A program made the translations under genes and the position numbers. This document shows positions 21,595 through 51,019 of a DNA stretch of 64,000 nt, piece after piece. The notes beneath the pieces were generated by a model. The model was given only the letters and a program-made list of their open reading frames with translations, was not told the DNA's origin and made no database searches. The stretch spans positions 1 through 64,000 of the forward strand of contig JABWCP010000011.1 of the NCBI GenBank assembly GCA_013360215.1, written 5' to 3'. The DNA comes from a bacterium. Lineage in GTDB: Bacteria; CLD3; SB21. Each line of letters begins with the position of its first letter. The stretch's first letter is position 1.

Positions 21595-22647
21595 ATGAAA
21601 CACATGCAGCAGTTATTAGCCTCCGCTGTTTTTGCCGGGATGATGATGCTCGGTGCGTGCGGTGATAAGAAAAAAGAAATCAAAAACGAAACGGTGGATC
21701 CTTCCAAAACAACAACAGCTGTTGCCGCTTCGACAGCCGTCAAAGTGGATGAAGGTATTGCGGCTTATGCCAAAACATCCGGTGTTTCAGGCAACGTGAA
21801 TAGTATCGGTTCCGATACGATGAATAACCTCATGACGTTTTGGGCGGAAGCGTTTAAGAAATTTTATCCTAGCGTCAATGTGCAGATCGAAGGCAAGGGC
21901 TCCAGCACGGCGCCTCCGGCTTTGATCGAAGGCACGGCCCAACTTGGTCCGATGTCGCGCCCGATGAAAAAAGAAGAAGAAGATAAGTTTGAAAAAAAAT
22001 ACGGTTACAAACCTACAGGTATCGCAACGTCGTATGACGGCTTAGCGGTGTATGTTCACAAAGACAACCCTATCAAAGGTCTGACGCTGCAACAGGTGGA
22101 TGCGATTTTTTCAAAAACACGTAAAGGCGGCGCCAAAGAAGATGTCGTGACCTGGGGTCAACTCGGCCTTGAAGGGGAATGGAAAGATAAACCGATCAGT
22201 TTGTATGGCCGTAATTCGGCTTCCGGTACTTACGGATATTTTAAAGATCATGCGCTTTTCAAAGGCGATTTCAAAGATCAAGTCAAAGAGCAGCCGGGTT
22301 CGGCTTCGGTCGTGCAAGGTGTGGGAAGCGATAAATACGCGATCGGTTACAGCGGCATCGGTTATACTACCAGCGAAGTGCGCGCCATTCCCGTGGCCAA
22401 AGATGATAAATCGGAATTTGTCGGCGAATCCTACGACAATGTGAAATCCGGAAAATATCCGCTCAGCCGTTATCTGTATGTATATGTTGCCAAACATCCC
22501 ACGAAGGATATGGATCCGCTGACGAAAGAATTTTTGAAATTTATTCTTAGCAAAGAAGGTCAAGAAGTGGTAGTCAAGGACGGTTATATGCCGTTAACCG
22601 CCGATGTAGTCAAACAACAACTGGAATTAGTTGAAAAGAAAAAATAA
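21595..22647 (+). CDS. pstS: Phosphate ABC transporter substrate-binding lipoprotein
   Basis: LGAC lipobox, [33 protein letters not shown] and YPLSRYLY. Confidence 0.95.
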
Positions 22648-22662
22648 TCGCACCTAATTTTC

Positions 22663-22699
22663 CCGACGGAAGTCTGCCCGCATGTCAGATTTCCGTCGG
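22663..22699 (+). other. Intercistronic hairpin after pstS (mRNA stabiliser or attenuator)
   Basis: CCGACGGAAGTCTG…CAGATTTCCGTCGG with no U-tract. Confidence 0.6.
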
Positions 22700-22732
22700 T
22701 ATGTTATAACCTAACCGAAAGCTCGTACTACA

Positions 22733-23662
22733 ATGTCAAACGAAGTGTTGATGTGGATCGGTTTCAATGTGTTTGTTCTGCTCATGTTGGCGCTTGATCT
22801 CGGGATATTTCATAAAAAATCCCATTCCGTCGGCATGAAAGAAGCGCTGATTTGGAGCGGTGTGTGGATCACGCTGGCGATGGTTTTTAATATCGGCGTG
22901 TATCACTACATGGGTTCTGAAGCCGCGATGCAGTTTTTGACGGGTTACGTCATCGAAAAATCGCTGAGCGTGGATAATATTTTCGTTTTTGTACTGATTT
23001 TTTCATACTTCGCGGTGCCCGCCGAATATCAACATAAAGTGCTGTTCTGGGGCATCATCGGTGCGCTTATTATGCGCGCCATTCTGATCGCTGTCGGCGC
23101 GGCCTTGATCTCCGAATTCCATTGGATCATATACATTTTCGGAGGTTTTCTGATCATCACAGGTATCAAAATGCTTGTGCAGAAAGAAATGGAAATTCAC
23201 CCGGAATCCAATCCGGTTGTACGGTTTTTTAAAAAATTCATGTCCGTAACACCGAGTTTTGAAGGCGATCGTTTTTTTGTAAAAAAAGATGCCAAAACAT
23301 GGGCCACGCCGCTTTTTGTCGTGTTGTTGATTGTCGAATTCACCGATTTGATTTTTGCCGTGGATTCGATTCCCGCGATTTTTGCGATCACCACCGACCC
23401 TTTCATCGTGTACACGTCCAATGTGTTTGCGATTTTGGGTTTACGCTCGCTGTATTTCGCCCTTGCCAGTGTGATTGAAAAATTTCACTTACTCAAGCTC
23501 GGTTTGGCGTTAGTACTCATTTTTGTCGGCGTGAAAATGACCATCGTTGATTTTTACAAGATACCGGTCGTCATCGCCTTAGCGGTGGTCGCTTCTATAC
23601 TTTCGGTTTCCGTAATATTGTCACTGCTGATTCCCGCAAAATCTAAAACGGAAAAATCATGA
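22733..23662 (+). CDS. TerC/Alx family membrane protein (metal homeostasis)
   Basis: EKSLSVDNIFVF, QHKVLFWGI.GAL..R, DLIFAVDSIPAIFAIT and FAILGLRSLYF. Confidence 0.93.
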   Translation: MSNEVLMWIGFNVFVLLMLALDLGIFHKKSHSVGMKEALIWSGVWITLAMVFNIGVYHYMGSEAAMQFLTGYVIEKSLSVDNIFVFVLIFSYFAVPAEYQHKVLFWGIIGALIMRAILIAVGAALISEFHWIIYIFGGFLIITGIKMLVQKEMEIHPESNPVVRFFKKFMSVTPSFEGDRFFVKKDAKTWATPLFVVLLIVEFTDLIFAVDSIPAIFAITTDPFIVYTSNVFAILGLRSLYFALASVIEKFHLLKLGLALVLIFVGVKMTIVDFYKIPVVIALAVVASILSVSVILSLLIPAKSKTEKS

Positions 23663-25833
23663 ATTTTTTGAACCGGCGACATATTTATGATCGCTTAGCA
23701 AGCGGCATCATTGCCGCGGGCGGATTTGCGCTGATCGTGATCATTTTAGGTATGATGGGTTTTATCATCAAACAGGCGTTGCCGCTTTGGTCCGGCGCTG
23801 AATTGTCAACAGTGTCGGCGATCGAATTAGCCCAAGATACCAATGATAAAAGTGCAATCAAGCTGATCGGTCAGGAGGAGCAGCGCGAAATTCTATTTGC
23901 TCTCACCGATAGCGGTGCCGTGCGTTTCATGCGTACCTCTGATCAAAAAGAACTGCAAACGTTTCACATCCCATTGCATAAGGATGAACACATAATCCAT
24001 GCGATGGAAGCTTTTGCATCGCATCGTATCGCCTGTGTGACGGATCAAGGTCGTATCATCGAAGCGGAGATAAAATTTTCTTCGCAGTTCACCGGTGATC
24101 ATCGTTCCATCATTCCCGAACTTCATATCCTCTCCGTACGAACGTCTTCAAAAACCAAAACGCCGGTCCGTGGTATTTCCTACGCCGTAACGGCTTCGGA
24201 TGCGTATGTTGCCGTGGCGAAAGAGAATACGGCTTATTACTACAAATCATCAGACACGGTGCCGTCACTCGTCGTGACCGATGCGGTGATCCGCTCAATG
24301 GCTATCAATCCATTGCGCGAAGAAATCGTATTGGGATTGGAAGACGGGCACATGGAACGTTGGGATATACGCGAAACCAATGCGCCGACGCGGATCGAAT
24401 CCGTGGCGGCTACCGCTCAAAACGGAATTGCGGTGACAGCGCTGGCGTATCTGATCGGCGATATCAGTTTGATCGTCGGAGATGAAGAAGGGCGTGTCTC
24501 GGGATGGATGGAAGTCAAGCATACCGACGGCAGCAAAAATTTTGCACGCATCCGTGATTTTGATCGGCACGAATCTTCGATACAAGCCATCACGGCTTCC
24601 TGGCGCAATAAATGTTTTGTAACCGCCGATGGCCGCGGTGTATTCAAACTGTTTCATTCAACCAGCAATCGGTTGCTGGTAGAACATAAGTTATCGTACG
24701 CGCCGTCGCAGTTGAGTTATGCACCCAAGGCCGACGGGTTAGTTTTCCTGAGCGGCGAAGGCAGAGTTGAAAATTTTGCATTGCATAATCCGCATCCGGA
24801 AAGCAATTGGCAAACGCTCTTCGGCGAAGTATGGTACGAGAGTTATGATGCGCCGGGTTATACTTGGCAATCTACCGGCGGCACGGATGATTTTGAACCC
24901 AAATTCAGTCTGATACCGTTGATTTTTGGTACACTCAAGGCAACCTTGTATGCGATGCTTTTTGCGGCGCCATTGGCTATCCTGGGCGCGTTGTATACCT
25001 CGCAATTTGCTCATCCTCGCATTCGTACGATCGTCAAACCGACCGTGGAAATTATGGCGGCATTGCCTAGTGTCGTCATCGGCTTTATCGCAGGTTTATG
25101 GCTTGCGCCGTTGCTCAAAAATGTGCTGATCGAATTTATCGCCGTGATAACGCTTCTGCCATTGTTGATCATTCTGTTTGTATTGTTGTTTGATAAGCTG
25201 CCCAAAAAATGGACGAATCCGTTTCGTCACGGCTATGAAGTATTTTTGATGTTGCCTGTCTTGGCGATTTCCATTTGGATCGGCTACATGGTCGGTTATT
25301 GGATTGAAACCAACATGCTTGGCGGTGATGTGCAAAACTGGCTTTATCAAACGCTCGGTATCCGCTACGATCAACGTAATTCGATCATTATCGGCATAGC
25401 GATGGCGTTTGCGGTGATGCCGATTATTTTTACGATTACCGAAGATGCACTCTCCAGCGTACCTAAACATTTGACCAGCGCTTCATTGGCATTGGGTGCG
25501 ACGCGTTGGCAGACGGCGATCAAAGTGGTGTTACCCGCGGCCAGTGCGGCCATTTTTTCCGCCGTGATGATCGGTTTTGGTCGTGCGGTCGGTGAAACGA
25601 TGATCGTACTCATGGCGACCGGCAATACCCCCATTATGGACTGGAGCATTTTTAACGGGATGCGTACGCTTTCCGCCAATATCGCCGTTGAAATCCCAGA
25701 AGCGCCTGAGGGTGGAACACTGTACCGCGTACTCTTTTTATCCGGTTTGTTGTTATTTGTGATCACGTTTGTGGTCAATACGCTGGCGGAAATAGTGCGT
25801 CAGCGTTTGCGAAAAAAATATGCATCCATGTAA
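23659..25833 (+). CDS. pstC: Phosphate ABC transporter permease PstC with large periplasmic beta-propeller insertion
   Basis: VWYESY..P.YTWQSTGG, PKFSLIPLIFGTLKA, KPTVEIMAALPSVV and GFGRAVGETMIVLM. Confidence 0.93.
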   Translation: MNFLNRRHIYDRLASGIIAAGGFALIVIILGMMGFIIKQALPLWSGAELSTVSAIELAQDTNDKSAIKLIGQEEQREILFALTDSGAVRFMRTSDQKELQTFHIPLHKDEHIIHAMEAFASHRIACVTDQGRIIEAEIKFSSQFTGDHRSIIPELHILSVRTSSKTKTPVRGISYAVTASDAYVAVAKENTAYYYKSSDTVPSLVVTDAVIRSMAINPLREEIVLGLEDGHMERWDIRETNAPTRIESVAATAQNGIAVTALAYLIGDISLIVGDEEGRVSGWMEVKHTDGSKNFARIRDFDRHESSIQAITASWRNKCFVTADGRGVFKLFHSTSNRLLVEHKLSYAPSQLSYAPKADGLVFLSGEGRVENFALHNPHPESNWQTLFGEVWYESYDAPGYTWQSTGGTDDFEPKFSLIPLIFGTLKATLYAMLFAAPLAILGALYTSQFAHPRIRTIVKPTVEIMAALPSVVIGFIAGLWLAPLLKNVLIEFIAVITLLPLLIILFVLLFDKLPKKWTNPFRHGYEVFLMLPVLAISIWIGYMVGYWIETNMLGGDVQNWLYQTLGIRYDQRNSIIIGIAMAFAVMPIIFTITEDALSSVPKHLTSASLALGATRWQTAIKVVLPAASAAIFSAVMIGFGRAVGETMIVLMATGNTPIMDWSIFNGMRTLSANIAVEIPEAPEGGTLYRVLFLSGLLLFVITFVVNTLAEIVRQRLRKKYASM

Positions 25834-25845
25834 CGGAATAATGAC

Positions 25846-27471
25846 GTGAAAAATCTTTTTAAAAGCGGCGATATTTTTTTGTGGTTCACCGGTGCCGTAC
25901 TCGGTATGATCATGTTTCTCGTTGCGGGCTTGCTGCTCATCGTAAGCTTGCAAGGTGTGGGCGTTTTTTGGCCGGGCAGTGTGGCGGAAGTCGAACTCAA
26001 AGATGGACGACGTTTTGCCGGCGAAATCATGCAGGAGGAAAATATCCCGCTGACCAATGTGCCGGATGCATATAAAGAAGAAGTGCAAACGCGCATTCAA
26101 ATCAAAACCGGTAATCGCGATATTTATGGGTTGGATTTCAAATGGCTAAACACATACGATATCGCGTCATTGCAGTATCCGGATGACTTCGTAATTATCG
26201 AACGGCGTGAATTCGGTAATTTCTACGGACGCGTGGCTTCGATTTCAGAAAACGGAACAATCATCGCCAGCGGAGCACAGGCGACCGAAACGTTGGATCA
26301 GTTTCTCCGCAAAGCCTTGGACGTGCATGATGAACAACTGCACCTCGAAAAAGGGGAAGGCGGTCGCATCAACCGGGCGATCGAGGATACGCGACTTGAA
26401 ATCAAACGTCTGAAATTTTATAAAGAAGATACGCCGGAATTATTGTCGTCGCTTGAGGCGGAGATTCATCGTTTGCAAGAAGCGTATCAGGGCATTCAAA
26501 AACAATTGGAAACGTTGCATCTGAAAACGAGCGGCATGTATGTCAGCGTGATCACTACCGACGGTCAAACCCGCGATTTACCGGTGTCCAAAATCGTGCG
26601 TTTTTATCAACCCAATACGATGAATACGTTTGAGAAATCCGGTTTTTATATAAGCAAAATATTTGAGTATCTGACGGATGAACCGCGCGAGTCGAATACG
26701 GAAGGCGGCGTTTTCCCGGCTATATTCGGTACGGTGTTGATGGTGTTTTTGATGAATCTGGTCGTAGTTCCATTTGGCGTCGTGGCCGCGCTGTACCTGC
26801 GCGAATACGCGAAACAGGGAATCGCTGTACGATTGATTCGCATCGCGGTCAATAATCTTGCGGGCGTACCGTCGATCGTTTTCGGAATTTTCGGATTAGG
26901 TTTTTTTGTGTACTTCTGCGGCGGCACGATAGATCAACTTTTTTATCCGGATCGCCTTCCGACGCCGACATGGGGCACCGGCGGTATTTTGTGGGCATCG
27001 CTGACACTTTCTTTATTGACGGTGCCGGTCGTGATCGTTGCAACGGAAGAAGCCCTGACTACCGTTCCTAAAGGCGTACGGGATGCGTCGCTGGCGCTGG
27101 GTGCGACAAAGTGGCAAACCACATGGCGCGTGGTCATACCGGCTTCTACACCGGGTATTTTGACGGGTGTGATTTTGGCTATGGCGCGCGGTGCAGGCGA
27201 AGTGGCGCCGCTGATGATCACGGGTGTCGTTAAGCTGGCTCCCAATCTGCCGTTGGACGGATCGTTTCCCTTCTTTCATTTGGATCGCAAATTCATGCAT
27301 CTCGGATTTCATATTTACGACGTGGGTTTCCAATCGCCCAATGTAGAAGCGGCCAAACCCATGGTGTTTATGACGGCGTTGCTTTTGATCACGATAGTGC
27401 TTTTGCTCAATCTGACGGCGATCATCGTGCGTGCGCGTTTACGAAAAAAATATCAAGGTTCGGCATTTTAA
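25846..27471 (+). CDS. pstA: Phosphate ABC transporter permease PstA (long form)
   Basis: [28 protein letters not shown] and [10 protein letters not shown]. Confidence 0.93.
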
Positions 27472-28313
27472 TGTATATTCATAAAGAGAACACTATGGAC
27501 ATTCGTATCAGTATGGACAATTCCGCGCCGGGTGAATCAACACCGGAGCAAGTTTCACATCGTGTGAAAATCGTTTCGCGCGATATCAATATGTATTACG
27601 GCGCACACCATGCGCTCAAAAACATTTCGGTGGATATTCATGCCAACGAAGTCACCGCGTTGATCGGTCCGTCGGGTTGCGGTAAATCAACATACCTGCG
27701 CTTATTTAACCGGATGAACGATCTGATCGAAAACGTACGTATCGACGGTCAGATTCTCATGGAAGGGCAAAACATCTATGATAAAGATACGGACGTGGTG
27801 GAGCTTCGAAAAAAAGTCGGCATGATTTTTCAGAAGTCCAATCCGTTTCCTAAATCCATCTATGAAAATGTGGCATACGGTCCGCGCGTCAATGGTGAAA
27901 ATAACAAAACCAAATTAGACGGCATCGTCGAACGGTGTTTACGAAAGTCGGCCTTGTGGGACGAAGTAAAAGATCGTCTTCACGCTTCGGCGTACGGATT
28001 GTCCGGCGGTCAACAGCAACGTTTATGTATAGCCCGTGCGTTGGCCGTGGATCCCGAAGTCTTATTGATGGATGAACCATGTTCCGCTCTGGATCCGATC
28101 GCCACACAAAAAATCGAAGATCTTATCGAAGAATTGAAGCGTGATTATACCATCGTCATCGTCACGCACAATATGCAACAAGCGGCCCGCGTGTCGGATA
28201 AAACGGCATTTATGTGGATGGGCGAGTTGATCGAATTTAACGCCACTAAAAAAATATTTACCTCGCCGGAGAAAAAAATGACCGAAGATTATATCACGGG
28301 TCGCTTCGGATAG
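27471..28313 (+). CDS. pstB: Phosphate ABC transporter ATP-binding protein
   Basis: [38 protein letters not shown] and YITGRFG. Confidence 0.97.
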
Positions 28314-28364
28314 AAAGACATAAACCTAACCATGAAAAGTTTTGAGAATAAAGGATTATAATAC

Positions 28365-29036
28365 ATGAAAGCTCAGTTTACGGAACAGCTCGGCCAACTT
28401 GAAAAACTTGTTATCGAAATGGGCAGCGTCGTTGAATCGCAGGTCAATAACGTCGTGACCGCGCTGCTGACGCACAATTCGGAATTAGCCCAGACCGTGA
28501 TCAAACAGGACGAAACAGTCGATGCGTTGGAAATGCAAATTGACGAAGCCGTGCTTAATCTGCTTGCTTTGCATCAGCCTGTAGCGATGGATTTACGCGA
28601 CATCATCGGTATTTCTAAGATCAACGGTGATCTTGAACGTATCGGCGATCATGCGCTCAATATCGCGCAGTCCGTGCTGGTGATCAATGAACGCAATTAC
28701 CGCGGCATCCACGCACAGATATCCAAAATGGCCGATATTACGCGGGAAATGCTCAAAGATGCGATTGACAGTTTTATTCACAAAGACGCCGATCAGGCTA
28801 TCGCGGTATGCCGACGTGATGATACGATTGACGATATCAATAAGTTCATGTTTGCGGATGTATTGGCCGGAATGATCAAAGACCCGCAGAGTATTCCGAT
28901 TTCGATGGAGATCATTCGCATCAGTAAAAATTTCGAACGCATGGCTGATCTTTGTACCAATATTGCCGAGGACGTTGTGTTTATTCGTAATGCGAAGTCT
29001 ATCAAACATCAGAAAGAACTACTACAACCAAAGTAA
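28365..29036 (+). CDS. phoU: Phosphate signalling complex protein PhoU
   Basis: Two PhoU repeats: QPVAMDLR…LERIGDHA.NIA and ERMADLCTNIAE. Confidence 0.95.
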   Translation: MKAQFTEQLGQLEKLVIEMGSVVESQVNNVVTALLTHNSELAQTVIKQDETVDALEMQIDEAVLNLLALHQPVAMDLRDIIGISKINGDLERIGDHALNIAQSVLVINERNYRGIHAQISKMADITREMLKDAIDSFIHKDADQAIAVCRRDDTIDDINKFMFADVLAGMIKDPQSIPISMEIIRISKNFERMADLCTNIAEDVVFIRNAKSIKHQKELLQPK

Positions 29037-29041
29037 AGCGT

Positions 29042-29749
29042 ATGTCTAAAAAACCAAAAACCATCCTGTGCGTTGACGACGAACACGATATCCTGGATAT
29101 TCTAACGTACAATCTCAAAAAAGAAGGATACCAGGTATATACCGCGGACAATGGCGATAAAGCGATCACCATGGCGGAGAAAATTCGACCCGATATGGTT
29201 TTACTGGACATCATGATGCCGGGCAAAGACGGATTGGAAGTGTGTAAAGCGCTGAGAGCGAATCCGCACCTTAAAGATGCGCACGTTATTTTTCTGACCG
29301 CCAAAGCCGATGAAGTGGATGAAATCATCGGGCTTGAATTTGGTGCCGATGACTATGTAACCAAACCATTCAGCCCTCGCAAAATCGTAGCCCGCGTGAA
29401 AGCGCTGTTTCGCCGTGTCGAAGTCCAAAAAGAACTTACGGACGACAAAAAAAGCATCATTAAAATCGGCGGTATCGAAATCAACCGGATCAACTATACC
29501 GTACAAGTGGACGGCCAGGAAGTAAAATTTCTCCACAAAGAATTTGAATTGTTGTATTTTCTGATGAATCGGCCCAATATGGTGTTTTCCAGAAACAATC
29601 TTCTTTATCATGTGTGGGGCGAAGATGCATTTTTTGTGGATCGCACCGTGGATGTCCATATAACAAAAATTAGAAAAAAATTAGGCCCGTACGGCGATTG
29701 GATCGAAACCATTCGCGGTGTGGGTTATAAATTCATACAAAACGCCTGA
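29042..29749 (+). CDS. phoB: OmpR-family response regulator (PhoB/PhoP)
   Basis: Receiver domain (LDIMMP, GADDYVTKPF) plus winged helix (EFELL, RTVDVHI..IR.KL, TIRGVGY); pst context. Confidence 0.88.
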   Translation: MSKKPKTILCVDDEHDILDILTYNLKKEGYQVYTADNGDKAITMAEKIRPDMVLLDIMMPGKDGLEVCKALRANPHLKDAHVIFLTAKADEVDEIIGLEFGADDYVTKPFSPRKIVARVKALFRRVEVQKELTDDKKSIIKIGGIEINRINYTVQVDGQEVKFLHKEFELLYFLMNRPNMVFSRNNLLYHVWGEDAFFVDRTVDVHITKIRKKLGPYGDWIETIRGVGYKFIQNA

Positions 29750-29751
29750 TC

Positions 29752-31155
29752 ATGAAAAAAATCAGTTCGCAGATTTCATATGCGACGATCGCACTTTTCC
29801 TGGTAGGAATCGTAGCCCTTCTTTTCGTTGTAGATAATCTTCTTCGCAAAAATCTCCAACACGAACTGATCGAAAACCTTAAAGTTCATTGCTTACTGAT
29901 TGATGAACTATTGCCGGTACAGCCGGATTCGCTGGAGCGGGAAATCCCTATGTATTCGCGTATGGCCGGCGTGCGTATCACCGTGATGGATATCCAGGGT
30001 CGTGTATGGGCTGATTTTGACGGTACGCGTTTTACACGCACCATCGAAAATCACATCATGCGTCCCGAGATACAAATGGCGCTGAGCGATGTGGCGGGAT
30101 TCGGTTATGCGATACGGCATTCCGGTACCGTGGATCAGGATTTGGTTTATACGGTGTATAAGTCGCCTAAACAGCGTTTTGTGCGCGTCGCTCAAAATCA
30201 ATCGTTCATTGACGGCATTACATCACAAGTCCGATTTACGTTTTATTTGGCGTCCGTATTGGTCGTCGGATTGATGCTGTTTCTTACCGTTCGTATAGCC
30301 AAACGCATCACGCGTCCTTTGACTGAGATCATACAGGCTTCGTCGGAAATCAAATCCGGAAATTATGATAAAGAGATCATTGTCCGTGAAGACAATGAAC
30401 TCGGCGAATTGGGTCGTACACTCAATGCCATGTCGGCCAAATTGAAAGACGATATCAAACAGCTCAATAAAGTACAGGAAATCAGAAAAGATTTTGTGGC
30501 CAATGCTTCGCATGAATTGCGCACTCCGATCAGTTCGGTACGCGGGTATATCGAAACATTGCTGGACGGTGCGTATCATGACGAAGAAGTGAGCAAAAAA
30601 TTTCTTGAACGCGCGCATTCTAATATTTTGCGTCTTGAAAATATCGTCAATGATATGCTGGACCTTTCCCGTTTGGAGTCCCGCGATCAATCGCTGAGTC
30701 TGCGCTATTTTAATGTCGAACAAAGTCTGCGTAATATTGTTGCTGATTTTGAAGAGGTGGCACGGCGTAAAAATCTGGATTTGGCATGTACGGTCAATTT
30801 GCCCTCGGATTTCAAATTTATCGCGGACCCGTATCAGTTTGATAAGGCCGTATTGAATCTCGTAGAAAACGCCGTCAAATATACGGAAAAAGGGCGCGTG
30901 GATGTGCGCGCAAAGTTTGAGAATAAGAAACTAGTGGTCGAAGTTGAGGATACCGGCAACGGTATCAAACAAGAAGATACGGAGCGTATTTTCGAACGTT
31001 TTTATCGTGTGGACCGTGGTCGTTCACGGGAACAAGGCGGGAGCGGTCTGGGGCTTGCTATTGTCAAACATGTTATGGAAATTCATAAGGGAACTGTACG
31101 TCTCGAAAGTGAAGTCGGGAAAGGTTCCCGCTTTATTCTCACTTTTCCTGTGTGA
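29752..31155 (+). CDS. phoR: Sensor histidine kinase PhoR-like (HAMP, HisKA, HATPase)
   Basis: ENH..RPEI, DFVANASHELRTP, FERFYRVD.GRSR..GGSGLGLAIVKH. Confidence 0.88.
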   Translation: MKKISSQISYATIALFLVGIVALLFVVDNLLRKNLQHELIENLKVHCLLIDELLPVQPDSLEREIPMYSRMAGVRITVMDIQGRVWADFDGTRFTRTIENHIMRPEIQMALSDVAGFGYAIRHSGTVDQDLVYTVYKSPKQRFVRVAQNQSFIDGITSQVRFTFYLASVLVVGLMLFLTVRIAKRITRPLTEIIQASSEIKSGNYDKEIIVREDNELGELGRTLNAMSAKLKDDIKQLNKVQEIRKDFVANASHELRTPISSVRGYIETLLDGAYHDEEVSKKFLERAHSNILRLENIVNDMLDLSRLESRDQSLSLRYFNVEQSLRNIVADFEEVARRKNLDLACTVNLPSDFKFIADPYQFDKAVLNLVENAVKYTEKGRVDVRAKFENKKLVVEVEDTGNGIKQEDTERIFERFYRVDRGRSREQGGSGLGLAIVKHVMEIHKGTVRLESEVGKGSRFILTFPV

Positions 31156-32346: not shown

Positions 32347-33072
32347 TTACTCCGCGTCTTTTACGACAAACGCTTTGGGAAACGTTTTTTTCAATTCATC
32401 GGCTTTCGCGCGGTCCTCAAACCCGCCGATCCATACCTTGTACATACCGTCGGTATGGGAAATTTTAGAGCGTACTGATTGTTTGGATTCGGCTTCCGTT
32501 TTTGCTTTTTGCGCTGCCGCTTCAGTAGAAAAAGATCCGATTTGAAGCCAGAAAAGTTCTTTACCGGAAATCTTCGGCGTAGCCATATCTTTCATTTCAT
32601 GGATCCACGCATCGGGATAACCGTTTTGTATTAGTTTCTGTTTGGCGGCATCGGCTTCTTCCCGTGTCATAAAATCGCCGACCCAGACGCGCCACTTGCC
32701 GTCGGTTTTGTCATCCAAAACATACACGGCTTTTTTCCATGTGGTATCGGCGGAGAGCGATGTATAATTTTTCTGTGCGTTGGAGGGACTGCCTGCAAAC
32801 ACCTGTACGCGGAAACGCGCCTGGATCGTGGGCTCGTAAGTTTTATAAGTGATCGAATCGGGCGCAGGCGTCATCGGGCTTACCGTATCCGGGGGAGTGA
32901 TCATATCATTGGGTAGTTTTTCATCGGCCAAAAAATCTAATTTTTCTGATTTATTTTTTTCCGACGTCTCAAGCGCTTTGGCAAAGTCGGCATCGGATTT
33001 AGCCGCAGGCTGCGTGGTTTTACAAGAAACTACCGTAAGCACAGCCGCAATGGTCACAATCATCAAACGCAT
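32347..33072 (-). CDS. SPOR-domain lipoprotein (two SPOR repeats)
   Basis: VVSC lipobox; FRVQVFA…WRVWVGDF.TREEA and LQIGSFS…YKVWIGGF.DR..A. Confidence 0.85.
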   Translation of the reverse strand: MRLMIVTIAAVLTVVSCKTTQPAAKSDADFAKALETSEKNKSEKLDFLADEKLPNDMITPPDTVSPMTPAPDSITYKTYEPTIQARFRVQVFAGSPSNAQKNYTSLSADTTWKKAVYVLDDKTDGKWRVWVGDFMTREEADAAKQKLIQNGYPDAWIHEMKDMATPKISGKELFWLQIGSFSTEAAAQKAKTEAESKQSVRSKISHTDGMYKVWIGGFEDRAKADELKKTFPKAFVVKDAE

Positions 33073-34689: not shown

Positions 34690-35301
34690 ATGGAAATTGT
34701 TTTAGCAACAAGTAATCCCAAAAAAGTAAAAGAAATGAATGCTATTATGAGCGGGATGCAAGTCCGGTTCAGACGGCTGAATGAATTTTCTGATGTACCG
34801 GAAATCATTGAGGACGGATTGACGTTTAAGGCCAATGCATTAAAAAAAGCGCACGTGATATTTGAGCATACGGGGATAATGGCGCTCGCGGATGACTCGG
34901 GTATCGAAGTGGATGCGCTGGGCGGAAAACCCGGTGTTTTTTCGGCACGGTATGCCGGCCCGTCACAAGACGATCGTGCTAATCTGGAAAAATTGTTACG
35001 GGATACAGAGCATGTGCCGGATGAAAAGCGTACCGCGCGCTTTCATTGCGTCATCGCGCTGGTGTGGGGTCAAGCCGGTAATGCGATGGAAAAAACATTT
35101 CACGGTGTGATGGAAGGCGCGCTTCTGCGTGCGCCGCGCGGAACACATGGTTTTGGCTATGATCCTATTTTTATGGTGCCTCAATACGATGGAAAAGCCG
35201 CCGCGGAATTAGATCCTGATCTTAAAAATAAAATCAGTCATCGCGGTCGAGCGTTGGAACAGTTTAAAACATTTTTTGAAAAAGAATTTTCTATACGATG
35301 A
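34690..35301 (+). CDS. rdgB: Non-canonical purine NTP pyrophosphatase (RdgB/HAM1)
   Basis: ATSN..K..E, ADDSG, GVFSARY, GFGYDPIF and KNKISHR. Confidence 0.95.
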   Translation: MEIVLATSNPKKVKEMNAIMSGMQVRFRRLNEFSDVPEIIEDGLTFKANALKKAHVIFEHTGIMALADDSGIEVDALGGKPGVFSARYAGPSQDDRANLEKLLRDTEHVPDEKRTARFHCVIALVWGQAGNAMEKTFHGVMEGALLRAPRGTHGFGYDPIFMVPQYDGKAAAELDPDLKNKISHRGRALEQFKTFFEKEFSIR

Positions 35302-36077
35302 AAAATAACCTTTTTAAAATTACATCCGTTCTAGCGGTGACGCTCATCGGTATCGTGGTGAGCTGCAAAAATGATCAAACAAAAAATTCGGTCAACCTAT
35401 CGGCCGATTCAAACATCGTAAAAAACGATACAATGTTGCTATCCAAAGTAATGCCTAAAGGGATTATTACACGATTGCCGGGTTCAGATTCGGTTGTAGC
35501 GCTGACATTGGATGCCTGTGAGTCACTGATCCCTTCTTATTTTGACACTACGATTTTAAACTATTTGTTGCTTGAGCGTATTCCGTTTACTCTGTTTATG
35601 ACGGGCAATTTTGCCGTACGAAATCGGGAGACATTACGTATGTTGGCGGGTTATGAATGGATAGATATTCAAAATCATTCCTACCATCATCACCTGCACA
35701 TGGAGTCGCTGAGTGACAGTGCGGTTGTAGCCGAAGTGAGATCGGCGGAAGATACTATTTTTTCGATCACGGGCCGACGAACAAAGTTGTTTCGTTTTCC
35801 GGGCGGAAATTACGATACGCTGACATTAAATCGTGTCGAACACTTGGGCTATCGCGTCGTCCACTGGAGTTTCGAAAGTGGGGATCCGGACAAAAAAATT
35901 ACGCCACAAAAGATGATTCCGTGGGTTACATCCAAAACACGACCGGGGGGTATTTTGATTTTTCATATCAACGGCCGCGGGTATGCTACAGGCAAGGCTT
36001 TACCGGAAATCGTCACGCATCTGCGTAACACCGGTTATCACTTTGCGAAGCTTAATGACTACACCTTCGCCGAATAA
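35298..36077 (+). CDS. Polysaccharide deacetylase (NodB/CE4) lipoprotein
   Basis: VVSC lipobox, ALTLDAC, NHSYHH, FRFPGG, SGDPD and LIFHING. Confidence 0.85.
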   Translation: MKNNLFKITSVLAVTLIGIVVSCKNDQTKNSVNLSADSNIVKNDTMLLSKVMPKGIITRLPGSDSVVALTLDACESLIPSYFDTTILNYLLLERIPFTLFMTGNFAVRNRETLRMLAGYEWIDIQNHSYHHHLHMESLSDSAVVAEVRSAEDTIFSITGRRTKLFRFPGGNYDTLTLNRVEHLGYRVVHWSFESGDPDKKITPQKMIPWVTSKTRPGGILIFHINGRGYATGKALPEIVTHLRNTGYHFAKLNDYTFAE

Positions 36078-46113: not shown

Positions 46114-47703
46114 ATGAAGAAAATCGATTTTTTAGATTGGTCACTTGACGCTTGGTTTTTAGCGTTATGTTTGATGTTGTGTTTAACATGTATGGCCTTC
46201 AGTTGTTCATTGAACGCACAGGAAAAAGACACGGTTATTTTGCGCGACTCCGCTGTAACCGAGGGCGACAGCGTGGACACGTTTAATGCCACAGTACAGA
46301 ATGTGGTGAATGAAACTCGACGTATCGTCAAACGACGCGCCCAAGCCGCATCGCGTTTTCTGAACGAACGCTACATCATCGTCATTGACCCAGGCCATGG
46401 CGGCACAAAGTACATAGACAAAGGGAATTCGGCCAAATTGGATGGCATCGAATACCACGAAAAAGACATGATGTTTGAATATGCACAGCTAGTGGAGAAA
46501 AAATTAGCCGCGGCAGGATATGAAGGACTGCGAAAAACGAAAGAAGCGGCGGATGATTCGTCGCTATCCATTTACACGCGTGCCGGTCGTGCGGCCAAAT
46601 TCGGAAAAGATGCAGGCAAAAAAGTTCTTTTTGTCAGCCTCCACTGGAATAATTTTGAAGATCCTTCGGTCGGCGGTACGGAGATATATATCAAAGAAAG
46701 TCAAAATTACAAAAGTCGTAAATTGGCGGAATTTCTGCGCGGTTCGATGAGTCATATTTTACAAATGCACGGTGCCGGTCAAAATATTACGGGTATCGTC
46801 GAACGCGATTATCGTGTGCTGCGCGAAATGGATACCGGTGTTTTGATCGAAATCGGGTACGCAAGCAACCCCGGCGACCTCCGAAAGATGCTGTCACAAA
46901 AAGACGAGATTGCCACCGCTATTGTCAATGGCATTGATGCGTTTGCGGAATATATGCAGGAACAAGAGGCGCAAAAACAAATGCCCAATGATGATCCCAA
47001 AAAAGCGGCTGAGGATGCCAAGTTAGCCGAAATCCCGAGCATCCCGTTTGGATGGTCCTGGCGCAAAAAAGATATTAGCGCCGATGTGGATCATCTGATG
47101 AAACGTTACGACGGGATGTACGAAAAGGTCACCACTGAAAAAGAAATTTACCTGACGTTTGACTGCGGTTGGGAAAACGGCTATACGCCGAAAATATTAG
47201 ATGTGCTGAAAGCCAACGAAGTCAAGGCCGCGTTTTTCATTACCGGCGGATATTTGAAGTCGGCAGAGGATGTCGTGGCGCGTATGGTGCAGGAAGGTCA
47301 TATCGTCGGCAATCATTCTGTCAACCACCTCAGCATGCCGCAGCTCAAAGTGCGGGAGATGAAGCGGGAGATTCTTGGTTTAGAGCAGGATTTTTATGAT
47401 CTTTTTGAAATGAAAATGAATTATTTCCGTCCGCCCAGCGGCGAATGGAGTCGTCGTTCGCTGGCCGTGACCCAGGCGCTGGGATATAAGACCGTATTTT
47501 GGTCGTTTGCGTACGATGATTGGGATGTGCAGGCACAACATGGGCGGGATTATGCATACAAAAAAATCACCCAAAATGTTCGCCCCGGCGTCATTATTCT
47601 GTTGCATGCGGTATCAAAGGATAATTTTGAAGCATTAGACGCCGTGATCAAAGATCTGCGCAAAGACGGTTATGTATTTAAGAGTTTGGATGAAATCAAA
47701 TAA
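46114..47703 (+). CDS. Fusion of N-acetylmuramoyl-L-alanine amidase (Amidase_3) and PdaA-type peptidoglycan MurNAc deacetylase
   Basis: Amidase Zn/catalytic motifs IDPGHGG, EKD, VSLHWN and VLIEIGY. C-terminal domain KEIYLTFDCGWENGYTPKILDVLK…GHIVGNHS..H…RPP.G…GYKTVFWS…LLHAVSKDN.EALD..I.DL.K.GY.FKS. Confidence 0.88.
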   Translation: MKKIDFLDWSLDAWFLALCLMLCLTCMAFSCSLNAQEKDTVILRDSAVTEGDSVDTFNATVQNVVNETRRIVKRRAQAASRFLNERYIIVIDPGHGGTKYIDKGNSAKLDGIEYHEKDMMFEYAQLVEKKLAAAGYEGLRKTKEAADDSSLSIYTRAGRAAKFGKDAGKKVLFVSLHWNNFEDPSVGGTEIYIKESQNYKSRKLAEFLRGSMSHILQMHGAGQNITGIVERDYRVLREMDTGVLIEIGYASNPGDLRKMLSQKDEIATAIVNGIDAFAEYMQEQEAQKQMPNDDPKKAAEDAKLAEIPSIPFGWSWRKKDISADVDHLMKRYDGMYEKVTTEKEIYLTFDCGWENGYTPKILDVLKANEVKAAFFITGGYLKSAEDVVARMVQEGHIVGNHSVNHLSMPQLKVREMKREILGLEQDFYDLFEMKMNYFRPPSGEWSRRSLAVTQALGYKTVFWSFAYDDWDVQAQHGRDYAYKKITQNVRPGVIILLHAVSKDNFEALDAVIKDLRKDGYVFKSLDEIK

Positions 47704-47719
47704 AGAACGATGAGAGCGA

Positions 47720-48460
47720 ATGGGTACACATGATCAAACGGCGGATGCCGTACTCCCCAAACCGGAAGAAAAAAAACAATACGTACGCGCCATGTTTGAC
47801 GGCGTGGCGTCAAAGTATGACTTTCTCAATCATTTATTGAGTCTCGGTATTGATATTTATTGGCGCCGTCGTGCCCTGAAACTGATCAATTTTTCGATGA
47901 ATCCGAAATTGCTGGATTTAGCCACCGGCACGGGCGATGTGGCGATCATGGCTATACGTATGGGTGCGCAACATGTGTACGGTGTGGATTTATCGGAAGG
48001 GATGTTGGCCTACGGGCGAAAAAAAATCGAAAAAGAAAAAATGACGGATGCGATCGATATGATCTGTGGTGAGGGCGAACGCATACCGATGGAAGATGCG
48101 TGTGTGGACGCTTCGACGATCGCTTTCGGCATTCGTAATGTCGTGGATATCCCGCAAACGCTGCGCGAAATGGCGCGTGTGACCAAAACATCGGGCATGA
48201 TCGTGGTGCTCGAGTTTTCCCAACCGCAATGGCCGGTGATGAAGCAGTTGTACCAATTCTACTTTACGCAAGTTCTTCCGCGCATTGGTTCTCTCTTTTC
48301 CAAAGATAAAAAGGCGTATCATTATTTGCCGGCGTCGGTGATGCGTTTCCCGGCACGTGACGAGTTTGCTCACATGATGGAACAAGCCGGCTATACCAAC
48401 GTTCGTCATTTTGATATGACGCTGGGTATCGTGACAGTTTATTCCGGCATCAAATTGTAA
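47720..48460 (+). CDS. ubiE: Demethylmenaquinone methyltransferase (UbiE/MenG)
   Basis: MFD.VA.KYD.LNH.LS.GID..WR, LDLATGTGD, AFGIRNV, VLEFS and AY.YLP.SV. Confidence 0.93.
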   Translation: MGTHDQTADAVLPKPEEKKQYVRAMFDGVASKYDFLNHLLSLGIDIYWRRRALKLINFSMNPKLLDLATGTGDVAIMAIRMGAQHVYGVDLSEGMLAYGRKKIEKEKMTDAIDMICGEGERIPMEDACVDASTIAFGIRNVVDIPQTLREMARVTKTSGMIVVLEFSQPQWPVMKQLYQFYFTQVLPRIGSLFSKDKKAYHYLPASVMRFPARDEFAHMMEQAGYTNVRHFDMTLGIVTVYSGIKL

Positions 48461-48480
48461 ACGTTTTTTTGGAGAACACT

Positions 48481-49110
48481 ATGCTGATCGAAAAAAAAGT
48501 AACAGAATTTTTAGATGAATTGGCCTCGTCGGCGCCTGCGCCCGGGGGAGGCAGTGTAGCCGCGTTGGCCGCGGCTCTGGGGACGGCACTCACAGCGATG
48601 GTCGCGCAGCTTACGATCGGAAAAAAGAAATATGCCGATGTCGAACCTATCATGCAGGAGATCAGCCGTAAAGCGGAAACCCTGCGCCGTGATGCAACAG
48701 CCCTGATTGATAAAGATACGATTGCATTTAATGCCGTGATGGCCGCATTTGCCATGCCCAAAGAAACCGACGAACAAAAACAAGCGCGCGCGTCGGCCAT
48801 CGAAAGTGCGACACAAAACGCAACGCGTATTCCTCTGGATGTTATGAAGTTGTGCGCAGCCGCAATCGGGTTGACCCATACGGTCGTTACGCGCGGCAAT
48901 ACTAACGCCCTCAGCGACGGCGGCGTCGGTGCGCTGATGCTGCAGGCCGCTTGCCGCGGTGCTTATTATAATGTGATGATCAATTTGGGCGGACTCAAGG
49001 ATGCGGCATTTGTATCGGCGACCCAATCGGAAGCGCAAATTACCATGAAAACCGTGGATGATGCGGCGCTTGCGATCAGTCAACACGTAGGCAATCAGTT
49101 CGGCGTATGA
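48481..49110 (+). CDS. Cyclodeaminase/cyclohydrolase family protein (FTCD C-terminal domain)
   Basis: FLDELAS.APAPGGGSVAAL, LTIGKKKY, ID.D..AF..VM.A..MPK and GN.NA.SD. GGAG SD precedes ATG 48481. Confidence 0.92.
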   Translation: MLIEKKVTEFLDELASSAPAPGGGSVAALAAALGTALTAMVAQLTIGKKKYADVEPIMQEISRKAETLRRDATALIDKDTIAFNAVMAAFAMPKETDEQKQARASAIESATQNATRIPLDVMKLCAAAIGLTHTVVTRGNTNALSDGGVGALMLQAACRGAYYNVMINLGGLKDAAFVSATQSEAQITMKTVDDAALAISQHVGNQFGV

Positions 49111-49256
49111 ATTTAGATACGATACTTTTTTTTATTGTCGTTGTCGGACTGTTGTCGTTTACGTTTTTGATTTATATCGGTCGTAAAAGAAAAAAAAGTA
49201 TAGGCGCGCGTAAAGAACGCATCAAAAACCAATGGCGTAACCGCCTTGAGGAATGA
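49107..49256 (+). CDS. Small single-pass membrane protein, 49 aa (MNLDTILFFIVVVGLLSFTFLIYIGRKRKKSIGARKERIKNQWRNRLEE)
   Basis: Translated by hand. Fills the intergenic gap exactly with ATGA overlaps at both ends. TM helix followed by a basic tail. Confidence 0.75.
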   Translation: MNLDTILFFIVVVGLLSFTFLIYIGRKRKKSIGARKERIKNQWRNRLEE

Positions 49257-51019
49257 GTATGGAACCGATGGACAAGCCGCTGGATAAACAATCCCTCATC
49301 AAAGGCGAGGTGCAGGATGACGTGGATCGCAAACTGCTGGAACTGTCTGCGCTTTTTGAAATAAGTCAGTTGCTCAATTCTTCCCTCAATCTGACTTCGA
49401 TCGTAGATAATATCTTGCTCTCACCGATGGGCCGCATGATGATCAATAAAGGTCTTTTTTTGCTGCATCGCGGTGATCATCAGTATGAAATATTTACCCT
49501 CAAAGGTTTATCCCGCGATCTGATCGGAAAAAAAATAAGCATCACCGAGATACCGCAAAAATCTTTTCTCCTCGATGAGGTTTCCGACGCGCCGTATCCG
49601 TGGCTTTCGTTTTTTACGCAGTACGACATGAAGCTGATCGTGCCGATCGTTTTGCGCAACGATATGCTTGGGTTGGTCGCTTTCGGAAAAAAATTGATCG
49701 GTGGTCCGTACATCGAAAGCGAGATCGAATTTTTATCGTCCATCGCCAATATTGCCGCCACCAGCATTCAAAACGGTATTGTGTTCGAAGAGTTACGATC
49801 GGTCAATGCGCGCTTAGATAAAAAAATACAAGAACTGCACACCCTTTTTGACATCGGCAAGGAACTCAACGCCACGTTAGATGCGCAGAAGGTCGTCAAA
49901 TTGCTTTCCTACGGGCTTATGGGTGAAATGATGGTTAATCGTTTCGCGATTTTGGTGCGTCGCCATGACGGTGTCGAATATGCCGAAAAACGGGGCCTTG
50001 CCCGATTGCAGCTCGATGACACCCAGACGTCGCTGGTATTCAATTATTCGCAACCGGCGGTGGTGACGGATGACGAGCACAGCGAACTGCAGCACGCTCT
50101 TCAAAATCAGGATATTATCGCAATTGTTCCGATGCGAAGCCAGGATCGCACAAAAGGTGTTCTGCTTCTTGGCCCTAAAATTTCCGGAAAAGGATTTACT
50201 AAAGAAGAATTAGATTTTGTTTTTACGCTGGGTAATCAGGCGATGATTTCGCTTGAAAACGCATGGCTTTTCGAAGATTCACTGGAGCGTAAACGACTGG
50301 AAGAGGAACTCGAACTTGCACGCAAAATTCAGATGGGCTTGTTACCTAAAGATTTTCCAAAACTGAACAATTTTGAAGTGTACGGTTTGAATATTTCATC
50401 CAAACAAGTCGGTGGCGATTACTTTGATGTGCTCAAAATCGATGAAACGCATTATATCATAGCGATCGCGGATGTGAGCGGTAAAGGCGTACCGGCTTCG
50501 CTTTTGATGAGCAATGTGCAGGCCAGTTTGCTGGCGCTCAGTACCGAAGTCAGTGATTTTAGCAAGCTTGTCTATAAGGTAAATAATATCATTTACGCGA
50601 ATACCGATTCCGAAAAATTTATCACGTTTTTTGGCGGTGTACTGGATATCGAAAAACGTACGTTTACATATGTCAATGCAGGGCACAATCCGCCGTATTG
50701 GCGGAAAACGGATGGGACGTTACATACACTGGATAAAGGCGGTTTACTTTTGGGTATGTTGCCCGACATGCCGTATGAACAAGAAACGATCACGCTTTCA
50801 CCCGGTGAAGGCATCGTCATGTTTACCGATGGCGTGACGGAAGCGATGAACGAAAAGTTGGATCAATATGACGAATCGCGCCTTGAAGCATTGATCAAGA
50901 CGCATCCGAAGATAACGGCCAAAGAATGTACGGAAAAAATTGCCGCTGAAGTCAAAGCCTTTGCCGGTGCGGCGCCGCAGTCAGACGATATCACCGTTGT
51001 TATCCTCCATGCTATTTAA
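49253..51019 (+). CDS. PP2C/SpoIIE Ser/Thr phosphatase with two GAF domains (RsbU-like)
   Basis: EELELARKIQ, VGGDYFD, IADVSGKG.PA, NAGHNPP, FTDGVTEA and QSDDIT. Confidence 0.92.
   Translation: MSMEPMDKPLDKQSLIKGEVQDDVDRKLLELSALFEISQLLNSSLNLTSIVDNILLSPMGRMMINKGLFLLHRGDHQYEIFTLKGLSRDLIGKKISITEIPQKSFLLDEVSDAPYPWLSFFTQYDMKLIVPIVLRNDMLGLVAFGKKLIGGPYIESEIEFLSSIANIAATSIQNGIVFEELRSVNARLDKKIQELHTLFDIGKELNATLDAQKVVKLLSYGLMGEMMVNRFAILVRRHDGVEYAEKRGLARLQLDDTQTSLVFNYSQPAVVTDDEHSELQHALQNQDIIAIVPMRSQDRTKGVLLLGPKISGKGFTKEELDFVFTLGNQAMISLENAWLFEDSLERKRLEEELELARKIQMGLLPKDFPKLNNFEVYGLNISSKQVGGDYFDVLKIDETHYIIAIADVSGKGVPASLLMSNVQASLLALSTEVSDFSKLVYKVNNIIYANTDSEKFITFFGGVLDIEKRTFTYVNAGHNPPYWRKTDGTLHTLDKGGLLLGMLPDMPYEQETITLSPGEGIVMFTDGVTEAMNEKLDQYDESRLEALIKTHPKITAKECTEKIAAEVKAFAGAAPQSDDITVVILHAI

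Follow-up and report, generated by a model that had tools for sequence, protein, structure and literature searches.

Muramic-delta-lactam is regarded as a chemical signature of the endospore cortex, where germination-specific lytic enzymes recognise it. Is it confined to spore formers, or might it also be made by a diderm bacterium? The question is raised by a gene at 46114..47703 (+) of a 64,000-nucleotide stretch of DNA (contig JABWCP010000011.1 of GenBank assembly GCA_013360215.1, GTDB lineage Bacteria; CLD3; SB21; the whole stretch is hereafter called the window). It is an ATG-started open reading frame (ORF) of 529 residues plus stop whose product, according to the ORF list and its translation, is an exported protein carrying an Amidase_3 and a CE4 domain. 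A first-pass annotation, made from the letters of the window alone, had drawn attention to this combination, and both the translation and Pfam bear out that the two domains are joined in one exported protein.

A PdaA-type deacetylase behind an Amidase_3 domain

Pfam places Amidase_3 at residues 89-275 (E 8e-29; 101.3 bits against a gathering cut-off of 27) and Polysacc_deac_1, the CE4 domain, at residues 339-461 (E 8e-35). All of the motifs that the first-pass annotation had listed by eye could be located in the translation, namely DPGHGG (92-97), E116, SLH (175-177) and IEIGY (245-249) in the amidase half and IYLTFDCGWENGYTPKILDVLK (345-366), GHIVGNHSVNH (395-405), LGYKTVFWSFAYDDW (456-470) and LLHAVSKDNFEALDAVIKDLRKDGYVFKS (496-524) in the CE4 half, and its comparison with PdaA was reproduced by alignment to the B. 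subtilis PdaA structure 1w1a. At the N-terminus a basic start, a hydrophobic helix (residues 11-32 of an AlphaFold model) and an Ala-X-Ala-like site followed by Gln fit export, and most of 18 homologues likewise have a hydrophobic N-terminus and then Q-D/E-S; Gln at position +1 is typical for signal-peptidase-I substrates of Bacteroidota. Residues up to 76 are modelled with a predicted local distance difference test score (pLDDT) below 50, and the conserved helix that follows reads E-T/A-R-R ... F-I/L-N. Between the two domains the model places helices at 263-289 and 295-305, W314 and W316 are invariant in the 18 fusions, and the PFGWSWRK end of the linker pairs with an N-terminal stretch of mature PdaA from B. 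subtilis (1w1a, alignment from residue 303).

The CE4 half is PdaA-type, and the NCBIfam scores, the matches in the PDB, the Foldseek comparison and the phylogeny agree on this. It scores 281.9 bits on the PdaA model (TIGR02884), matched over profile positions 13-223 of 224, against 160.4 for PdaB, 113.5 for NodB, 106.8 for YlxY/SwsB and 85-100 for three PgdA models, which upholds the earlier by-eye judgement that the domain is PdaA-type rather than generic NodB or PgdA. B. subtilis PdaA (PDB 1w1a) aligns to residues 303-528 (E 1.5e-59), and this enzyme together with a B. anthracis PdaA-like esterase gives the best four PDB sequence matches (200-205 bits), with the next non-PdaA chain at 106 bits, PgdA (2c1g) at 83 and PdaC (6h8l) at 61. 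With an AlphaFold2 model built on an 18-sequence alignment (mean pLDDT 79.7; predicted template-modelling score, pTM, 0.59), Foldseek returned B. subtilis PdaA (1w17) first, at a TM(target) of 0.90, a root-mean-square deviation of 2.0 and 43% identity. To clostridial proteins of the PdaA clade the CE4 half is 55-63% identical.

Additional support comes through a maximum-likelihood tree of 133 CE4 domains (IQ-TREE quick search, LG+G4, root set by outgroup paralogues), in which 24 fusion rows form a single clade (Shimodaira-Hasegawa-like approximate likelihood ratio test, SH-aLRT, 99) within a PdaA clade of 115 rows (SH-aLRT 100) that includes named Clostridia proteins passing the PdaA cut-off. 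Seventeen other CE4 paralogues of spore formers and one paralogue from the genome itself fall outside this clade, as do the PdaB-like paralogues with 226-235 bits on the PdaB model. For this tree 85 stand-alone rows were sampled from the best 222 matches to the query (one list contributing its top 30 and 15 others drawn at random, a second list its top 25 and likewise 15 at random), one protein 98% identical to the query (P0002) was left out, matches of fewer than 120 profile positions were dropped and identical domains were collapsed (144 to 133). A phylogeny with PdaA, PdaB, PdaC and PgdA had been proposed in the first-pass annotation; our tree places the fusions inside the PdaA clade and apart from PdaB-like proteins, and is without rows for PdaC, PgdA and the PdaA enzymes of Bacillus and C. 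difficile.

All 18 aligned fusion proteins share D350, H401, H405, R439, D469 and H498 of the CE4 half, and D350 aligns with D73 of B. subtilis PdaA, its catalytic base (10.1101/2023.03.12.532300). Motif 1 had been noted to lack its second Asp, with TFDC where PdaA has TFDN, and the 1w1a alignment agrees: the fourth residue is C in 18 and N in six of 24 fusions, the stand-alone rows of the PdaA clade have TFDE in 87 of 91 cases, B. subtilis PdaA has TFDN, and the canonical TFDD never occurs in the clade. More broadly, 75 columns show conservation of 90% or more across the 91 stand-alone rows; at 60 of these, 90% or more of the fusions carry the same residue, and among the PdaA-specific columns 23 of 33 are kept.

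Two stand-alone CE4 proteins may be mentioned alongside the fusion. The window encodes a second deacetylase of this type (35298-36077 (+), 259 residues). It is of a generic kind, scoring 116 bits with PdaB, where the cut-off is 237, and 80 bits with PdaA; it gave no match to TIGR02873, the SwsB model, at E <= 1e-25 and sits outside the PdaA clade on a very long branch (1.98). P0291, a PdaA-type protein that stands alone and shares 56% identity with the CE4 half, falls among clostridial PdaA on a longish branch (0.37); it lies on a 6.7-kb contig of a metagenome-assembled genome labelled Hyphomonadaceae (Alphaproteobacteria), and could be either a non-Firmicute PdaA or a mis-binned contig.

The amidase half is, as judged from its sequence, intact and strongly constrained, but it is no CwlD orthologue and is an outlier within Amidase_3. 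H95, E116, H177 and E246, which from structures of the family we take to be the zinc ligands and the catalytic Glu, are invariant in 18 of 18 fusions, and Foldseek matches this half to Rv3717, 4rn7 and CwlD (7rag) at TM(target) 0.69-0.80. Among 1.84 billion representative proteins HMMER found 4970 relatives at E <= 0.001 and only two below 1e-30, one of them a representative of the fusions themselves and the other P0140, a LysM-Amidase_3 protein of 41% identity. In a 178-row amidase tree the fusions (SH-aLRT 95) pair with P0140 (SH-aLRT 97), with paths to CwlD proteins (2.16-2.26) about as long as those to the amidases of the genome itself (2.14-2.50). The best amidase match reached only 33-46 bits in each of five genomes of Clostridia spore formers; three of them gave a CwlD or near-CwlD and two some other amidase. 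No donor of the amidase half could be named from a word-index search of short proteins (3 matches), HMMER or the trees, and an NCBIfam tally of 73 short matches did not discriminate, every one of them matching the CwlD model to some degree. As the amidase half is not a CwlD orthologue, the pathway looks reassembled and not imported as a cwlD-pdaA pair.

The nearest non-fusion relative, P0140, comes from a 2.5-kb contig labelled Candidatus Woesearchaeota archaeon, a label that may be a binning error. The genome that carries the fusion has three further Amidase_3 loci. A suggestion that the amidase half is closer to clostridial than to native amidases was withdrawn, phmmer giving no match to these loci and blastp 37.7 and 31.6 bits. 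An origin from a native amidase at the locus was rejected too: in genome G019, whose family is the phylum's most distant one, a native 497-residue amidase (L164, contig C59, 6042-7532 (-)) stands two genes upstream of ubiE, the gene that also follows the fusion, and is only 25% identical to the fusion. L164 is the orthologue of an amidase on contig C41 of the fusion-bearing genome (L094, 45% identity).

Distribution, history and host of the fusion

Among the genomes searched the fusion is confined to one family. Only 20 species-level genomes, in three families, represented the phylum in the collection searched, and whole-genome searches found the fusion in 13 of these 20, all from the same family, where it is present in the genome studied here and in 12 of 14 others (seven of nine genera); in those 12 it is found at 53-71% identity. 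It was not found in the three and two genomes of the phylum's two other families or in 41 unrelated genomes. In a collection of 5.8 billion proteins 18 of the best 120 clusters have both domains, at 98% down to 52% identity, and from rank 19 onward the matches are stand-alone PdaA-type proteins of about 55-60% identity over the CE4 domain, those with names being labelled Clostridia or Firmicutes/Bacillota. Similarly, a one-genome-per-species scan of 185,579 species had the fusion in two of the 80 loci listed (labelled ‘bacterium’ and ‘uncultured Bacteroidota bacterium’), and the other 78 are labelled Clostridia or Bacillota, and in them the CE4 part alone matched. Homologues are named in the databases ‘polysaccharide deacetylase family protein’ or ‘peptidoglycan-N-acetylmuramic acid deacetylase’.

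The gene order DUF4442 (-), fusion, ubiE, FTCD_C recurs across genera, and the fusion-ubiE order is kept at six of 11 related loci examined. As ubiE starts 16 bases past the stop codon of the fusion, the two are probably co-transcribed. The two family genomes in which the fusion is missing (G002 and G006) keep ubiE-FTCD_C-GAF-phosphatase and have different genes upstream. The simplest history would be a single acquisition and fusion near the base of the family, followed by vertical descent and two losses, and because the fusions nest within the PdaA clade the transfer would have run from Clostridia to the fusion family. Amidase, CE4 domain and linker are under strong purifying selection: in unsaturated pairs within one genus (Nei-Gojobori; synonymous divergence, dS, 0.14-0.82) the ratio of nonsynonymous to synonymous divergence (dN/dS) is 0.021-0.062 for the amidase, 0.029-0.034 for the linker and 0.039-0.082 for the CE4 domain, and a relaxed 0.37-0.62 for the N-terminal 86 residues.

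The host was described in the first-pass annotation as a diderm with no sporulation genes in view, and both parts of this description hold at the scale of the genome (3.72 Mb, 100% complete, 0.53% contamination). BamA scores 461 bits against a cut-off of 297, and the window has two TonB-dependent receptors with carboxypeptidase-regulatory-like domains, lipopolysaccharide-core genes (an HldE-like kinase/cytidylyltransferase and a family-9 heptosyltransferase) and OmpH/Skp. Whole-genome searches for Spo0A, SpoIVA and SleB/CwlJ gave no match above cut-off, the best of 84 receiver-domain matches to Spo0A reaching 76 bits against 200, and SpoIVA and the Hydrolase_2 domain of SleB/CwlJ giving no match. 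An endospore-forming host with cortex-lytic readers, the setting otherwise expected of a PdaA, is therefore not what these searches found. Separately, a divergent LpxC lies at G000:C19:84659-85525, where a single 338-residue frame gives a split match of 119 and 36 bits that falls short of the cut-off of 187.

A proposed two-step reaction and its alternatives

Taken together these comparisons suggest that the fusion could act as a Sec-exported, probably periplasmic, bifunctional peptidoglycan editor of a non-sporulating diderm. In a first step its N-terminal zinc amidase would strip the stem peptide from N-acetylmuramic acid (MurNAc) in the cell's own glycan strands, and in a second the tethered PdaA-type CE4 domain would de-N-acetylate the peptide-free MurNAc and cyclise it to muramic-delta-lactam, such that the two-step cortex chemistry of CwlD and PdaA would be carried out by one polypeptide. 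The CE4 half would have been acquired horizontally from a spore PdaA of the Clostridia type, at or near the base of the one family, and the amidase half would be of separate origin. The chemistry itself is precedented: CwlD and PdaA suffice for lactam formation in vitro (10.1101/2023.03.12.532300), and their co-expression in the E. coli periplasm yields lactam according to work cited there and a review (PMC5855634). PdaA is inactive on peptidoglycan until an amidase strips the stem peptide (10.1101/2023.03.12.532300; PMC5855634), and since PdaA requires peptide-free MurNAc the fused amidase would supply exactly such a substrate, which, with a conserved linker of about 40 residues between them, would be made beside the CE4 domain. 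The translation and Pfam gave no further C-terminal sorting domain or secretion-system tag beyond the CE4 fold, which makes the periplasm the likely site. What we infer from these observations is that the protein sits in the periplasm and works on the cell's own sacculus, in which order the two steps run, that lactam is the product, and what physiological role it may have; candidate roles include editing of denuded septal strands, hardening of strands against muramidases and lytic transglycosylases, and a resting stage. We lean slightly toward the view that lactam forms in the cell's own sacculus by way of de-N-acetylated muramic acid (MurN). With more reserve, and at somewhat less than even chances, we suggest the wider reading that delta-lactam is not an endospore-only modification, that uncultured diderms have welded a captured clostridial PdaA to an amidase and install the lactam in their periplasmic peptidoglycan, and that it serves normal growth, division or a non-endospore resting stage there, with some reader or benefit yet to emerge.

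Four known systems help to place this proposal. The CwlD and PdaA pair of the B. subtilis and C. difficile cortex is alike in having an Amidase_3 enzyme followed by a PdaA-type CE4 enzyme, expected to act in the same order, and its catalytic base D73 is kept as D350. It differs in being two proteins where the fusion is one polypeptide, in working in spore formers, our host being a diderm whose genome yielded no Spo0A, SpoIVA or SleB/CwlJ, in its amidase, of which the fusion amidase is no orthologue, and in motif 1 (TFDE or TFDN against TFDC). SwsB (YlxY) of B. subtilis shares the CE4 fold, the peptide-free muramic residues and the pathway, but PMC12444981 describes it as without one catalytic residue and without deacetylation, whereas the fusion keeps all deacetylase residues. 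SddA (YibQ) of E. coli is a periplasmic diderm deacetylase that acts solely on N-acetylglucosamine (GlcNAc) in strands that an amidase has denuded, and it has a genetic link to EnvC, an activator of amidases (10.1101/2025.02.18.638797). The likeness is one of logic and not of family, since SddA is a PF04748 protein with a GlcNAc target, no lactam, and amidase coupling by operon and protein binding, and the fusion has a CE4 domain of the PdaA type coupled by fusion. Finally, PdaC and PgdA of vegetative Firmicute walls share the CE4 fold and its metal-dependent deacetylase motifs, but are far more distant from the CE4 half (61 and 83 bits against 205 for PdaA), and they act on peptide-bearing peptidoglycan and so need no amidase.

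A number of observations weigh against lactam formation by the fusion. On TIGR02884 the CE4 half (281.9 bits; 284.3 in the six-frame search) is 16 bits under the curated cut-off of 298, above which clostridial PdaA proteins of the same tree clade score 301-312 bits. At ten of the 33 columns specific to PdaA the fusions depart from the conserved residue, the changes including E351 to C/N, P406 to L and H490 to R/T, the last at a position that is H in 91 of 91 stand-alone rows, and the activity of the CE4 half may have shifted after transfer. The stand-alone rows of the CE4 tree were chosen among the best matches to the query itself, and the Bacillus PdaA and C. difficile PdaA1 that it leaves aside are the two biochemically characterised enzymes. 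As to the amidase half, CwlD (TIGR02883) is its best NCBIfam amidase family, yet at 66.2 bits against a cut-off of 221.55, and in the 178-row tree it is not sister to CwlD, with support of 31-72 at the deeper linking nodes. The geometry between the two domains is uncertain in the model, as its pTM indicates. In B. subtilis a separate cyclase, SwsB, also contributes according to PMC12444981, and a SwsB-like gene was not identified here, TIGR02873 scoring only 107 bits on the fusion (cut-off 391.5). The delta-lactam readers SleB/CwlJ (Hydrolase_2) were not found in the 100%-complete genome, which thus shows no known purpose for the lactam, and the fusion is dispensable, given that the family genomes G002 and G006, 100% and 98% complete, are without it.

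The main rival is a denuded-strand editor that would stop at MurN, with little or no lactam, and modulate SPOR binding, amidase activation or strand breakdown; functionally it would resemble SddA, but on the other sugar. The changes at PdaA-invariant P406 and H490 could have hit the cyclase step, the genomic context is one of housekeeping genes, and the genome has SPOR-domain proteins but no match to the SddA family PF04748 (Polysacc_deac_2), which is also missing from the Pfam matches of the fusion. SddA gives a precedent for deacetylating denuded strands (10.1101/2025.02.18.638797), and in vitro PdaA deacetylates fast and cyclises slowly (10.1101/2023.03.12.532300). However, both characterised PdaA enzymes deacetylate and cyclise, and the D73N result marks cyclisation as a separate property of the PdaA fold (10.1101/2023.03.12.532300), most of whose specific columns are kept here; moreover, CwlD and PdaA alone gave lactam in the E. 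coli periplasm, as the sources named above indicate. An editor that ends at MurN is thus the strongest competitor to lactam formation, though we consider it unlikely.

Less probable again, and to our minds doubtful, is that the enzyme acts on foreign or released peptidoglycan, in nutrient scavenging or in damage to the walls of neighbours in sludge. Such a role would suit an exported protein of a dense activated-sludge habitat, encoded in a genome rich in TonB-dependent receptors and dispensable in two members of the family. It sits poorly with the want of a secretion tag or extra C-terminal domain, with which periplasmic retention is expected in a diderm, with the neighbours at the fusion locus, where the conserved genes are DUF4442, ubiE and FTCD_C and no toxin-immunity or polysaccharide-utilisation genes were found, and with the nature of lactam formation, which is no degradative step.

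It is very improbable that one half is a mere targeting module, with CE4 or amidase binding its ligand while the protein retains a single activity; CE4 pseudoenzymes do exist (BA3943 is among the Foldseek matches) and the metal-binding Asp of motif 1 is replaced by Cys, but the remaining catalytic residues of the amidase and CE4 domains never vary among 18 fusions, dN/dS lies at 0.02-0.08 for both, and members of the PdaA clade normally have something other than Asp at motif 1 (87 of 91 rows have E, and the B. subtilis enzyme has N). The weakest alternative, an assembly chimera or Firmicute contamination, against which the first-pass annotation had cautioned and to which the purely clostridial nearest relatives of the CE4 half might seem to point, was tested and is rejected with near certainty: the fusion is present with common neighbours and at 53-71% identity in 12 of the 14 other family genomes, one contig from a DNA run of another study spans 46840-48500 (amidase end, linker, CE4 and ubiE), the GC content of the gene is that of its flanks, and the genome has 0.53% contamination.

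Our survey of the literature, mostly at the level of titles and abstracts and with supplements aside, found no description of the fusion architecture or of delta-lactam in a non-Firmicute; the chemistry and the folds are known, and it is the fused form and its biological setting that are new. If the fusion does make lactam, the range of the muramic-delta-lactam modification would extend beyond spores, and a compact single-gene tool would be available for placing lactam or peptide-free MurN in Gram-negative sacculi. It would also provide a second independent diderm case, beside SddA, of chemically editing the denuded strands that amidases make, and an instance of a pathway rebuilt after horizontal transfer, with the deacetylase alone coming from Clostridia and the substrate-supplying step from a different, fused amidase.

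Feature map, occurrence and neighbouring genes

Table 1. Parts of the fusion gene and its downstream neighbour, in window coordinates.
Feature	Position	Strand	Basis
Whole gene, Amidase_3 plus PdaA-type CE4	46114..47703	+	ORF list, translation, two Pfam domains
Probable signal peptide, residues 1-35 (MKK, hydrophobic core, ...SLNA/Q)	46114..46218	+	Cleavage site inferred
Residues 36-86, variable Ser/Asp/Thr-rich part, then conserved helix into amidase	46219..46371	+	Model, alignment
Amidase_3 (N-acetylmuramoyl-L-alanine amidase) domain, residues 87-278	46372..46947	+	Pfam, invariant H95/E116/H177/E246
Helical charged linker, residues 279-318, ending in PFGWSWRK	46948..47067	+	Model, 1w1a alignment
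PdaA-type CE4 domain, residues 319-529, motif 1 TFDC	47068..47700	+	TIGR02884, 1w1a, Foldseek, tree
ubiE/menG-type methyltransferase, context gene outside the enzyme	47720..48460	+	Ubie_methyltran E 6e-66 (Pfam)

The stretch was found in activated-sludge, sludge and bioreactor metagenomes (20 runs of 10 studies, the source sample possibly among them), with half or more of its sampled words present in 14 metagenome runs. RNA-library contigs of three studies cover 46210-46392, 46305-46528, 46425-46575, 46840-47128 and 47439-47610 at a depth of 2-4.6, a weak hint that the fusion gene is transcribed; stretches of the ORF with no such contig carry no information either way.

Downstream of the fusion, the gene at 49253-51019 (+) encodes a protein of 588 residues with GAF domains and a Pfam ‘SpoIIE’ match (E 1.8e-48). 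As a sporulation gene it was rejected, this being a generic PP2C phosphatase domain behind GAF, and, like ubiE and FTCD_C, it keeps its place after the fusion site in the two family genomes where the fusion is missing. SPOR domains bind peptide-free glycan strands, and their ligand is thus the substrate class that the fusion amidase would make and the CE4 half would modify; of the SPOR-domain proteins in the genome one is encoded inside the window, at 32347-33072 (-), a protein of 241 residues with two SPOR repeats (53 and 37 bits). Elsewhere in the window, 21595-31155 (+) holds a phosphate-uptake cluster with a PstS-like binding protein, TerC, an ABC ATPase, PhoU and a PhoB/PhoR-like pair, as well as two unusually long permease genes of 724 and 541 residues.

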